Positions 1 through 2,666 of a stretch of DNA of 64,000 nt are shown in pieces. Each line of letters begins with the position of its first letter. The stretch's first letter is position 1. This DNA is from Escherichia coli (GTDB taxonomy: Bacteria; Pseudomonadota; Gammaproteobacteria; Enterobacterales; Enterobacteriaceae), in NCBI RefSeq assembly GCF_024223415.1, contig NZ_CP100500.1. The stretch is one strand, 5' to 3'. The translations under genes were made by a program, and so were the position numbers. The notes beneath the pieces are model-generated. The model saw nothing but the letters and a program-made list of their open reading frames with translations. It was not told the origin of the DNA and ran no database searches.

Positions 1-670
1 TATTGATGACGCGGTCAGCGACGGTTCACAAGCGAACGCGGGTCAACGGCTAATCCGTGCGCAGGGTAATGCCGCAGCACTTCATCAGGGATGGAAGGCA
101 GTCCAGAATGTGCTGGAGTGGAGTTGCGGTGTTTCTGATTATCTCGCTCAAATGCTGGCGTTGCTTCGTGTACGTTATCCTGACGGCAATATCGCCTGCA
201 CCCGAAAAGCAATTCCGGGCACCCGCTTACTGGCCTCGCAGGCAATTCTGGCTGCCGGAGGACTGATTCATCGTGCCGGATGTGCGGAAACCATATTATT
301 GTTTGCCAACCACCGCCATTTTCTTCATGACAATCAGGACTGGTCAGGCGCAATCAATCAGTTACGTCGCCACGCACCCGAGAAGAAAATTGTTGTTGAA
401 GCCGACACGCCGAAAGAGGCAATCGCCGCGTTACGCGCGCAACCAGACGTACTTCAGCTCGACAAATTTAGTCCGCAACAGGCAACTGAAATTGCGCAAA
501 TAGCGCCGTCGCTGGCTCCCCACTGCACGCTGGCTCTGACCGGCGGAATTAATCTGACGACACTCAAAAATTACCTCGACTGCGGCATTCGCCTCTTTAT
601 TACCTCCGCGCCTTATTACGCGGCACCGGCTGACATTAAAGTCAGTCTGCAACCCGCAGCCTCTATTTAA
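1..670 (+). CDS. ModD-like protein, quinolinate/nicotinate-nucleotide pyrophosphorylase family (5' end lies outside the window)
   Basis: Reading frame is open from the window start and continues into ORF 110..670; translation shows QPRTase-family pattern (PGTRLL...AGG..HR). Gene is cut by the window edge. Confidence 0.6.
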   Translation, partial: IDDAVSDGSQANAGQRLIRAQGNAAALHQGWKAVQNVLEWSCGVSDYLAQMLALLRVRYPDGNIACTRKAIPGTRLLASQAILAAGGLIHRAGCAETILLFANHRHFLHDNQDWSGAINQLRRHAPEKKIVVEADTPKEAIAALRAQPDVLQLDKFSPQQATEIAQIAPSLAPHCTLALTGGINLTTLKNYLDCGIRLFITSAPYYAAPADIKVSLQPAASI

Positions 671-695
671 TTCTTTGTTAAACGGAATTTATTCT

Positions 696-2666
696 ATGAG
701 ACTCAAAAAACATTATCTCTGCACAGCATTATCACTTGCCTTTACCCAGCAGGCCGTAGCGGCTCAGGAGAGCGACTCGCTGACCGTATGGTCCAGTCCG
801 GTATCATCGACGACGACCACCGTTCTCGATCAACCCACCATGAAGGCCCTGGATAAACAGAATGTCGCTCAGGCATTAAGTGTCGTCCCCGGCGTGGTGC
901 TGCAAAAGTCAGGCAGCCGCAACGAAGAACAGGTAAAAGTTCGTGGCTTTGATAGTCGGCAGGTGCCGGTCTATTTCGACGGTGTGCCCATTTATGTTCC
1001 CTATGACGGCAACCTCGATCTGGCGCGGATCCTGACCAACAATCTGGGGGCAGTCGAAGTTTCCAAAGGGTATTCGTCGCTGCTTCAGGGGCCTAATCAG
1101 ATGGGCGGAGCCATTAATATCACCACCCAGAAGCCAACAAAACCTCTGGAAGCAAGTCTGGGATATCGCCAGGGATGGAGCCGTAGCCAGGACAATGCCT
1201 ACGATATGCATGCTTCATTTGCCGCCAGCAGCGATCTGGGGTATTTGCAAGTCAGCGGTAGCCAGCTAAAGCAGGATTTTCTCGGCCTGCCGCATGGTGT
1301 AAATAATGATATTGCAGGCAAACACGGCAAGATGATTAATTCATCGGCTGATGATAAACGCGGCATTGTGAAGCTCGGATTTACACCACGTGAAAACGAT
1401 GAATACACACTGACTTACATTAAGCAGGATGGTGAAAAAGATAACCCGCCATACAGCGGAAATAGTGGTCAAAAATCACGCTACTGGCAGTGGCCAGAGT
1501 ATGACAAAGAAAGTTTTTATTATCAGGGAACGACCCAACTAAACGATCGTTTTACCCTGAAAAGTCGGCTGTATCGCGACACCTTTGAAAATACGCTGAT
1601 GATGTACAACTCGCTGGCTGATTTGAAAAATAAAAAAGGCAGCTACAGCCATTATTCCGATTACAGCGACGGTGCCGGATTACAACTGGCAGCCGATGTG
1701 CGTGAAAACGATCTGCTGTCGTTTGCCGTTAACTGGAAAGATGACGTACACCGGGAAAAAGGTGCGCCGCACGCCGCTTACGATCGCTATGAAGATCGTA
1801 CCTGGTCGCTCGCCAGTGAATATCAATGGGCTGCTGCCGATAATGTCGATGTTGTGGCTGGAATCAGCTATGACTGGCGCGATAGCGTAGAAGCGAAAAA
1901 ACACGAGAAAGATGGCAGCATCACCCATTATGACGACAACAATCAGTCAGCTTTTAACTGGCAGGTGATGGGGAAATACCACTTTGCCAATGAAGACACG
2001 CTGGCGCTTTCGTACTATGACCGCACACGCTTTCCGACGCTGAAAGAACGCTATACCACATCCAAACCTGCGTATAACCAGATAGCGATTGTTAACCCGC
2101 AGCTCAAGCCGGAACGCGCTCGCGGGGTGGATTTAACCTGGAATGGTGCCTTCACGCGCGACTGGGGATTTGAGGTCAGCGTTTACTATAACCGGGTGAG
2201 TGATGCCATCCTCTCGCACAATATCGATGCCGATACCATTCAAAATCAGAACAGCGGCACGGTGGATTACAGCGGTCTGGATGCCGGTATTAAGGGGAAA
2301 ATCAGCAATATACTGGATGTAGGATTGAGCTACGCCCTGATCCACGCTGACGCCAAACGCAAAGACATCGGCAAGATAACCGATCTGCCAACGCAGACAA
2401 TGACCGCATGGATGACACTCAAACCATGGGAGCCGTTAAGCGTAACGCTGTCGGAAGAGGCGCGATCCTCCAGCTACAGCAACAGTGACGGTTCACAAAA
2501 AGCCGCCGGTTTTGCGGTGACCCACATTCGAGCCGATTACACCTTAGGTCATGGCTTCAGCGTCAATGCGTCGGTCAATAACCTGTTTGATACCCAATAT
2601 GCCTACAGTGAAGGGTTTATTGAAGAAGGCCGCAATTTCTGGGCAGGTGTCGAGTATACGTTCTGA
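696..2666 (+). CDS. TonB-dependent outer-membrane receptor
   Basis: ORF 675..2666; likely start at MRLKKHY (696) giving a signal peptide ending AVAA. Plug-domain-like N-terminus, long beta-barrel, C-terminal aromatic residue (..VEYTF). Not in the K-12 gene order here; may correspond to the prrA-modD accessory iron-uptake locus, from memory. Confidence 0.8.
   Translation: MRLKKHYLCTALSLAFTQQAVAAQESDSLTVWSSPVSSTTTTVLDQPTMKALDKQNVAQALSVVPGVVLQKSGSRNEEQVKVRGFDSRQVPVYFDGVPIYVPYDGNLDLARILTNNLGAVEVSKGYSSLLQGPNQMGGAINITTQKPTKPLEASLGYRQGWSRSQDNAYDMHASFAASSDLGYLQVSGSQLKQDFLGLPHGVNNDIAGKHGKMINSSADDKRGIVKLGFTPRENDEYTLTYIKQDGEKDNPPYSGNSGQKSRYWQWPEYDKESFYYQGTTQLNDRFTLKSRLYRDTFENTLMMYNSLADLKNKKGSYSHYSDYSDGAGLQLAADVRENDLLSFAVNWKDDVHREKGAPHAAYDRYEDRTWSLASEYQWAAADNVDVVAGISYDWRDSVEAKKHEKDGSITHYDDNNQSAFNWQVMGKYHFANEDTLALSYYDRTRFPTLKERYTTSKPAYNQIAIVNPQLKPERARGVDLTWNGAFTRDWGFEVSVYYNRVSDAILSHNIDADTIQNQNSGTVDYSGLDAGIKGKISNILDVGLSYALIHADAKRKDIGKITDLPTQTMTAWMTLKPWEPLSVTLSEEARSSSYSNSDGSQKAAGFAVTHIRADYTLGHGFSVNASVNNLFDTQYAYSEGFIEEGRNFWAGVEYTF

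Follow-up and report, generated by a model that had tools for sequence, protein, structure and literature searches.

The Haemophilus influenzae MolBC-A system imports molybdate, which represses molB; its binding protein binds molybdate as well as tungstate (PMC4031551). Its genes adjoin modD (PMC3928620). Geobacter sulfurreducens encodes modDABC, with ModD likewise tied to molybdate transport (PMC545781), and the nif cluster of Zymomonas mobilis contains modD, modE and two TonB-dependent transporters. In Escherichia coli, modD is found in a cluster, prrA-modD-yc73-fepC, described in uropathogenic strain CFT073 and in O157:H7 (S-loop 83/OI-55, ECs1693-1699; PMC1890555, PMC2323221), and in the avian pathogenic strain BEN2908 as the 6382-bp GR9, 'possibly mediating iron uptake' (PMC12928451). 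Here we analyse a 64,000-nt stretch of E. coli DNA (contig NZ_CP100500.1; hereafter the window) that begins inside modD of this cluster. The in silico evidence makes it fairly probable that the cluster is an operon for ModE-controlled, TonB-dependent uptake of molybdenum or tungsten, and its customary iron label is probably wrong.

The six-gene operon

The operon lies between treA and ymgE and comprises six tightly packed genes, the last two of which are in the window. Annotation, and the sequence to the left of the window, come from E. coli SCU-316, which was isolated from the rectum of a healthy person and is 100% identical to the window; positions in the SCU-316 locus are prefixed L001, and subtracting 12000 from them gives the window position. 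An earlier reading of the window's letters (the original prediction) had suggested extending the sequence upstream to see the rest of the operon, and SCU-316 supplied four more genes. The promoter is ~3.8 kb left of the window. The genes, in order, are:

L001 8240-9262: Peripla_BP_2 binding protein, whose N-terminus (MSLTRRRFTQ) resembles a twin-arginine translocation (Tat) signal
L001 9262-10242: FecCD permease
L001 10239-10997: ATP-binding cassette (ABC) ATPase
L001 11007-11819: class I S-adenosylmethionine (SAM) methyltransferase
L001 11816-12670: ModD, 284 amino acids (aa)
L001 12696-14666: TonB-dependent receptor

The original prediction had pointed to a resemblance to a prrA-modD operon, and the resemblance proved to be identity. 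The operon is the published prrA-modD-yc73-fepC cluster: that name, reversed, gives the order ATPase (fepC), methyltransferase (yc73), modD, receptor (prrA) found here, the locus is the same, the length of ~6.4 kb agrees with the size of GR9, and O157:H7 genomes carry the receptor gene at 99.2% identity.

A predicted ModE operator in the promoter

A ModE-type site, TTCGATATATATGTAAATATATAGCGGT (L001 8190-8217), precedes the ATG of the first gene by 23 nt. Its palindrome, CGATATATA-N6-TATATAGCG, departs from the E. coli ModE consensus ATCGNTATATA-N6-TATATANCGAT (quoted in PMC545781) at two of 20 specified positions. No other match within three mismatches occurs in 27 kb, 100 shuffles gave none, and the 64-kb window contains no site within three mismatches. 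When the promoter region itself was shuffled 1000 times, the best match never had fewer than four mismatches. The same scan upstream of K-12 modA and moaA returned best ModE-like sites with four mismatches each, which we take to be the known ModE operators; the operon site fits the consensus better than either. The modA box is 18 nt before the modA ATG, a distance comparable to that at the operon. A perfect TTGACA (L001 8171-8176) is followed, after an 18-nt spacer, by a −10 element (TATATA) inside the left ModE half-site, so that bound ModE would be expected to occlude the promoter. A simple promoter and terminator scan returned sites no commoner than in shuffles, and missed TTGACA-N18-TATATA because its −10 lacks the final T. 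Taken as a sequence-based prediction, the operon carries a ModE-type operator.

The cited literature lists the cluster as an iron-uptake locus or a possible one (PMC12928451, PMC1890555, PMC2323221), a label assigned in those papers from homology alone. Under this explanation, the operon would serve iron-starved cells by importing haem, a ferric siderophore or some other ferric chelate. It draws on the RefSeq name of the first gene ('iron ABC transporter substrate-binding protein'), on a FecCD/Peripla_BP_2 architecture typical of iron-chelate importers, and on the top NCBIfam matches of the receptor, which are the TonB-siderophore and TonB-haemin subfamilies. Both matches are far below their curated cutoffs (TIGR01783, 126.5 against 223.5; TIGR01785, 123 against 316.85). 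The original prediction had also proposed iron acquisition and a search for a Fur box. A search of 27 kb allowing three mismatches found no Fur box. In the 333-nt upstream region, the closest match differs at 6 of 19 positions, which 206 of 1000 shuffles equalled or bettered. With no Fur box beyond chance in the promoter, a receptor below the family cutoffs and a conserved regulatory site of the ModE type, the iron proposal was not borne out, and we consider iron uptake unlikely.

Conservation across genera

To ask how far this arrangement extends is to leave E. coli: one genome per species with a receptor alignment gave 80 loci (1.53 Mb), in which ModE-like boxes were called at up to four mismatches. 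The 44.8 kb of sequence up to 300 nt upstream of binding-protein or receptor genes contain 80 such sites and the other 1.49 Mb contain 13, an enrichment of ~200-fold. The box precedes the binding-protein gene in 46 of the 64 loci that have that gene, and the receptor in 33 of 80. Spacers and flanks vary between genera but half-sites are kept, a pattern that points to selection on the site beyond shared ancestry alone. Proteus, Providencia, Morganella, Shewanella and Pectobacterium have a longer gap before the receptor, and a second ModE box lies there.

The same six genes occur in the same order (tblastn) in Citrobacter, Yokenella, Raoultella, Enterobacter, Serratia, Symbiopectobacterium, Erwinia, Pantoea, Pectobacterium, Morganella, Proteus and Providencia. 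In delta-proteobacteria the order is receptor, (FmdE), methyltransferase, binding protein, permease, ATPase; the methyltransferase accompanies the receptor and importer even there.

Molybdenum genes recur beside the receptor homologues. The Pseudomonas aeruginosa receptor (45% identity) adjoins an Oxidored_molyb gene, moaA and narGHJI, and a ModE-like palindrome, ATCGTTATGTA-N6-TGCATAACGAG, lies 12 nt before its ATG. A small Oxidored_molyb gene similar to that of P. aeruginosa directly precedes the receptor at locus L074, and a ModE-N-like helix-turn-helix together with an Oxidored_molyb gene is found directly before a receptor. Lampropedia has modABC-like genes beside it, Necropsobacter a di-TOBE Mop-like gene nearby, and delta-proteobacteria FmdE and ModA-like genes; in a verrucomicrobial metagenome-assembled genome (MAG), a gene for a 1424-aa molybdopterin oxidoreductase comes before the receptor. 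Several of the 13 ModE-like sites found elsewhere, like several receptor neighbours, are at molybdenum genes. That the neighbours of the homologues are molybdenum genes and not siderophore synthesis genes is a further point against iron uptake.

Some of these loci have features of their own. In P. aeruginosa (L083 10001-12525), the receptor gene overlaps the downstream gene for a 182-aa Oxidored_molyb-domain protein, and proteins with this domain may be recurring receptor partners. Two Pasteurellaceae loci (L064 9501-9995, L077 1865-2380) have a 164–171-aa open reading frame (ORF) with no Pfam match immediately upstream of the receptor, past the ModE-like box. The position of ModD is taken in delta-proteobacteria by an FmdE-family protein with a DksA-type zinc finger, and in Lampropedia by a DUF2478 protein; the delta-proteobacterial clusters also contain a DUF364/DUF4213 'heavy-metal chelation' protein and a TonB gene. 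The proteins that replace ModD in distant clusters (L070 12036-12665; L079 4042-4674 and 9393-10136; L069 11971-12717) may be alternative cytoplasmic partners of the uptake module.

ModD, the receptor and the methyltransferase

The part of the operon within the window, with its right flank, contains the following features:

1..670, + strand: 3′ part of modD, 222 of 284 codons plus stop (translation; RefSeq coding sequence in SCU-316)
671..695, + strand: spacer of 25 nt between modD and the receptor gene (sequence)
696..2666, + strand: TonB-dependent outer-membrane receptor 'prrA', 656 aa (ORF, RefSeq coding sequence, Pfam domains)
696..761, + strand: predicted Sec signal peptide MRLKKHYLCTALSLAFTQQAVA, cleavage after AVA (/AQE) (n/h/c-region pattern read from the translation)
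774..794, + strand: candidate TonB box DSLTVWS, residues 27–33 (read from the translation)
2643..2666, + strand: last 24 nt of the receptor gene, retained in K-12; right edge of the variable segment (blastn breakpoints, exact 24-mer)
2674..2703, no strand assigned: 11-bp GC-rich hairpin between the convergent receptor gene and ymgE (RNA fold)
2716..2970, − strand: ymgE, core flanking gene (RefSeq, SCU-316 and K-12)

The modD gene starts 184 nt left of the window; its frame is read from window base 2 and yields 222 residues (2–670), with the TAA at 668–670. The original prediction's call of a ModD-like gene of the quinolinate phosphoribosyltransferase (QPRTase) family at the window start holds for the full 284-aa protein, which scores 502.6 bits against NCBIfam TIGR01334 (cutoff 178.85) over 277 of 277 profile positions and contains both QPRTase Pfam domains (QRPTase_N, QRPTase_C). 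TIGR01334 is classed by NCBI as a hypothetical equivalog. Assignment to NadC was rejected: TIGR00078 gave 134.4 bits against a cutoff of 198.4, the fold being common to both. Alignment with the Mycobacterium tuberculosis QPRTase shows that the RK, HR, E and D motifs are kept, and that the Lys of 'IKDNH' is replaced by Phe.

The receptor is, by its sequence, a member of the TonB-dependent receptor superfamily, with a Pfam Plug domain (residues 39–139, 3e-21), a TonB_dep_Rec_b-barrel domain (223–630, 3e-33) and a C-terminus, AGVEYTF, that ends in an aromatic residue. It does not reach the cutoff of any named NCBIfam receptor family, the BtuB models included (TIGR01779, 78.6 against 599.7; NF007926, 70.4 against 836). 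Its start is ATG 696 in RefSeq, and Met1 does not vary among 16 homologues taken from different genera. An alternative in-frame TTG at 675 would give a 663-aa ORF beginning 4 bp past the modD stop. The ATG is favoured by the RefSeq start, the invariant Met, the typical signal-peptide N-terminus and the TonB-box-like DSLTVWS. The 656-aa receptor of the original prediction therefore stands, and the 4-bp gap given with it, which fits the TTG ORF, does not; the gap is 25 bp. The TonB box of BtuB is of the DTLVVTA type, and DSLTVWS was called by its resemblance to such a box; across the receptor homologues, this region has the consensus TVWSSPV, with W32 invariant. The 25-nt spacer has no ModE box or promoter of its own (the best ModE-like match in window 1–3200 has seven mismatches), which implies that the receptor gene is co-transcribed with the operon.

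The methyltransferase contains a conserved GCGxG segment, taken as the SAM-binding motif. Its AlphaFold2 model has a predicted local distance difference test (pLDDT) score of 89.6.

Transporter relatives

The permease has as its closest solved relative H. influenzae MolB/HI1471 (2nq2_A, 5.7e-64), and matches FhuB, HmuU and BtuC at 1e-48 or weaker (BtuC, 1.7e-39). Likewise, the best match of the ATPase among solved ABC importer ATPases is MolC/HI1470 (2nq2_C), one eukaryotic P-glycoprotein chain scoring slightly higher overall. The binding protein departs from this pattern. Its identification as MolA is unlikely, since it is of the 4pag type, as is the copy beside the receptor in an uncultured Haemophilus.

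These comparisons bear on uptake of a corrinoid or another tetrapyrrole by a BtuB/BtuCD-like system. The best NCBIfam matches of the permease are BtuC models, the ATPase matches corrinoid and haem ABC ATPase models, and the methyltransferase has a weak match to the corrinoid-protein-associated CpaM (2.5e-11, 43 bits against a cutoff of 180). All of these model scores are well below their cutoffs, however, and the permease is nearer to MolB than to BtuC. The regulatory site is of the ModE type, and neither a cobalamin riboswitch nor any other Rfam match at E ≤ 1 was found in L001 7800-15200 (7.4 kb, operon and promoter). Corrinoid or tetrapyrrole uptake is accordingly very unlikely indeed.

Proposed function

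We conjecture that the operon works as follows. When molybdate is sufficient, ModE-molybdate would occupy the promoter palindrome, overlapping the −10 element, and switch the operon off; under molybdenum starvation the operon would be expressed. The receptor, energized by TonB, would then move a scarce molybdenum species (free molybdate or tungstate, or a molybdenum complex) across the outer membrane, and the Tat-signal binding protein would pass it to the MolBC-like type II ABC importer for delivery to the cytoplasm. The QPRTase-like ModD and the small-molecule methyltransferase may act on the imported compound, on a co-import, or in molybdenum handling. What the sequences show is the gene content and order, the family assignments, the ModE-type site with its conservation between genera, the lack of a Fur box, and the molybdenum genes near receptor homologues; binding and repression by ModE, the substrate and what the two enzymes do are inferred.

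Several points weigh against this proposal. TonB-dependent receptors and type II importers are mostly used for bulky chelates or cofactors, and E. coli already has the high-affinity ModABC, so that the need for a second system is unclear. The best NCBIfam matches of the receptor are the siderophore and haem subfamilies, albeit below cutoff. The binding protein matches MolA weakly (5.4e-08) over ~100 residues (190–287), and its closest solved relative, 4pag (2e-26), was deposited merely as 'Periplasmic binding protein'. MolA itself has a low affinity for molybdate, ~100 µM (PMC3928620). A Foldseek search with the methyltransferase model returned generic small-molecule N-, O- and S-methyltransferases only (template modelling (TM) scores of 0.5–0.6), and the proposal does not explain what ModD and the methyltransferase contribute. 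Shewanella and some other versions of the cluster have no ModD, and some distant receptor neighbourhoods are not obviously related to molybdenum (e.g., a DHOR di-haem oxidoreductase at L066). Finally, the window itself includes neither the operator nor the first four of the six genes, which are known only from the 100%-identical SCU-316.

Some of the same points favour ModE-controlled import of a larger, molybdenum-related organic molecule, such as a 'molybdophore' complex (e.g., a catecholate) or a molybdopterin or pterin fragment, which ModD and the methyltransferase would process or release in the cytoplasm. Bulky ligands are the normal cargo of TonB receptors and of type II, BtuCD-like importers, and the low affinity of MolA for free molybdate leaves room for another ligand. 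Two cytoplasmic small-molecule enzymes are co-transcribed with the importer, ModD keeps most QPRTase catalytic motifs, and the methyltransferase stays with the receptor and importer as far as delta-proteobacteria. Against this, no chelator biosynthesis genes are in or beside the operon, no ligand was identified in the analyses run, and the receptors of P. aeruginosa and the verrucomicrobial MAG occur without a dedicated importer, methyltransferase or ModD. In those two, the periplasmic product may feed into ordinary molybdate uptake, a point for the free oxyanion; the bulky-ligand type of the importer and the two enzymes in the enterobacterial operon keep a molybdenum complex or pterin-type ligand in play. 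We give the larger molecule a modest chance.

The claim can be widened to the whole receptor family, at what we judge to be roughly even chances: its receptors would be the first TonB-dependent outer-membrane transporters dedicated to molybdenum or tungsten, ModE-controlled and widespread in Proteobacteria, pathogens included, and joined in Enterobacterales by a MolBC-like importer and two enzymes, ModD and the methyltransferase, acting on an imported molybdenum compound. Pathogens with the receptor family include extraintestinal pathogenic E. coli (ExPEC), O157 E. coli, Proteus, Providencia, Morganella and P. aeruginosa. We found no literature tying the cluster, or any TonB-dependent receptor, to ModE or molybdenum, in a search that was incomplete and that leaves a prior prediction possible. 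A Shewanella regulon study names only modE and modABC under ModE.

Distribution and origin in E. coli

Of 5426 complete E. coli genomes, 2149 (~39%) carry the receptor gene at ≥95% identity, nearly always as a single copy, and the promoter fragment is co-distributed with it (2144 genomes). Its occurrence in so many genomes, together with homologues of 50–86% identity in the same gene order in other Enterobacterales, argues that it is not a chance ORF. We rejected a diverged second copy on a pathogenicity island (the wording of PMC1890555), since in sensitive blastn all copies were at least 95% identical, almost always one per genome.

In K-12 MG1655 the order is ycgR-ymgE-ycgY-treA, with no modD or receptor; the original prediction was right that the gene order upstream of ymgE in the window is not that of K-12. 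Genomes without the operon match the window only from 2643 on. The variable segment extends from L001 7852, inside the 3′ end of treA, to window 2642, and measures 6.79 kb against 0.68 kb in K-12. MG1655 keeps the exact last 24 nt of the receptor gene between ymgE and ycgY, encoding the terminal AGVEYTF and the stop. The last ~58 bp of treA differ between the two haplotypes, so the replaced segment begins inside treA. The K-12 replacement carries an orphan gene, ycgY (146 aa, no Pfam match; L002 5456-5896, MG1655 1245160-1245600).

The operon looks ancestral, and replaced or lost in part of E. coli. Its GC content (0.50–0.556) is ordinary for the species, it adjoins treA also in E. albertii, Citrobacter and Raoultella, and K-12 retains the 24-nt remnant; together these suggest an ancestral operon lost in part of the species. 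Recent horizontal acquisition was rejected on the ordinary GC content and the synteny in these other genera. The word 'accessory', used of the locus in the original prediction, is thus apt for a strain-variable operon (~39% of genomes) and not for a recently acquired one.

Altered receptors are also on record. A truncated 486-aa receptor (99% identical) represents 568 Shigella flexneri sequences, which suggests that the uptake system is decaying in Shigella. In one E. coli record, receptor domains and PilZ/YcgR domains are joined in a 720-aa product, a fusion probably produced by deletion of ymgE.

Other features of the window

The hairpin at 2674..2703 is within the part common to K-12. It folds at −19.2 kcal/mol (z = −3.3), with none of 200 shuffles as stable, and is probably a terminator shared by the receptor gene and ymgE. 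A terminator-like scan that needs a T-run after the stem did not list it. Beyond ymgE, the SCU-316 annotation continues with ycgR, emtA, ldcA and cvrA. RefSeq flags cvrA as missing its C-terminus, yet window 5627-7363 is an uninterrupted ORF of 578 aa. Between cvrA and dadX, window 7984-9420 (+ strand) encodes a 478-aa hypothetical protein with a short leucine-rich-repeat match, in a ~1.9-kb segment that K-12 lacks; small ORFs lie at ~7235-7702.

Farther along (window ~34100-37870), the RefSeq annotation of SCU-316 has four frameshifted pseudogenes: bluF (34100-35305), bluR (35500-36264), ycgX (36446-36850) and iraM (37545-37869). The frameshifts could reflect real decay of the Ycg/Ymg blue-light and biofilm module, or homopolymer sequencing errors.

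Significance

The passage of molybdate over the outer membrane is generally treated as passive, and accounts of molybdenum uptake in the literature searched name no outer-membrane receptor. If the proposal is right, a ModE-repressed TonB system adds an active outer-membrane step to molybdenum uptake, and bacteria would spend energy to draw molybdenum through that membrane when the host or the environment makes it scarce. Enzymes for nitrate, formate, dimethyl sulfoxide and trimethylamine N-oxide need molybdenum, and the system would give studies of molybdenum limitation something concrete to work on, whether in the gut, in the urinary tract or in anaerobic respiration. The cluster has reportedly been catalogued as 'iron-uptake' in pathogenic E. 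coli since 1998; molybdenum uptake would correct a virulence-catalogue annotation that counts it among the iron systems of ExPEC and enterohaemorrhagic E. coli, and would supply a context for ModD and its partner methyltransferase. Should the molybdenum prediction fail, the locus is an ordinary, already catalogued, strain-variable uptake operon.

Comparison with known systems

MolBC-A of H. influenzae (HI1470-HI1472, with modD as HI1473) resembles the operon in the kinship of its permease and ATPase, in having a class III binding protein and in its link to modD. The operon differs in adding a TonB-dependent receptor and a SAM methyltransferase, and in a binding protein that is only weakly MolA-like. 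The E. coli system is a paralogous relative of MolBC-A and not its orthologue. ModABC/ModE of E. coli shares with the operon the type and position of the operator and the predicted logic of repression when molybdate is sufficient. The transporters themselves are of unrelated types: ModABC, a type I importer, works with a ModA-type binding protein and lacks an outer-membrane component, and it is core in E. coli, whereas the operon is found in ~39% of genomes.

The Fep, Fhu, Fec, Btu and Chu/Hmu systems have the same parts as the operon (a plug-barrel receptor, a Peripla_BP_2 protein, a FecCD permease and an ATPase) and the same presumed energetics, and the operon has a candidate TonB box, as do the classical TonB receptor systems. 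It differs from them in that no Fur box or B12 riboswitch was found, in a receptor below the named-family cutoffs, and in the presence of both ModD and the methyltransferase, a pair that those systems do not have. With the prrA-modD-yc73-fepC cluster of pathogenic E. coli the operon is structurally the same, and the functional label alone differs. The locus itself is already catalogued; what is new is its functional reading, as a variant on the theme of a receptor plus an ABC importer.

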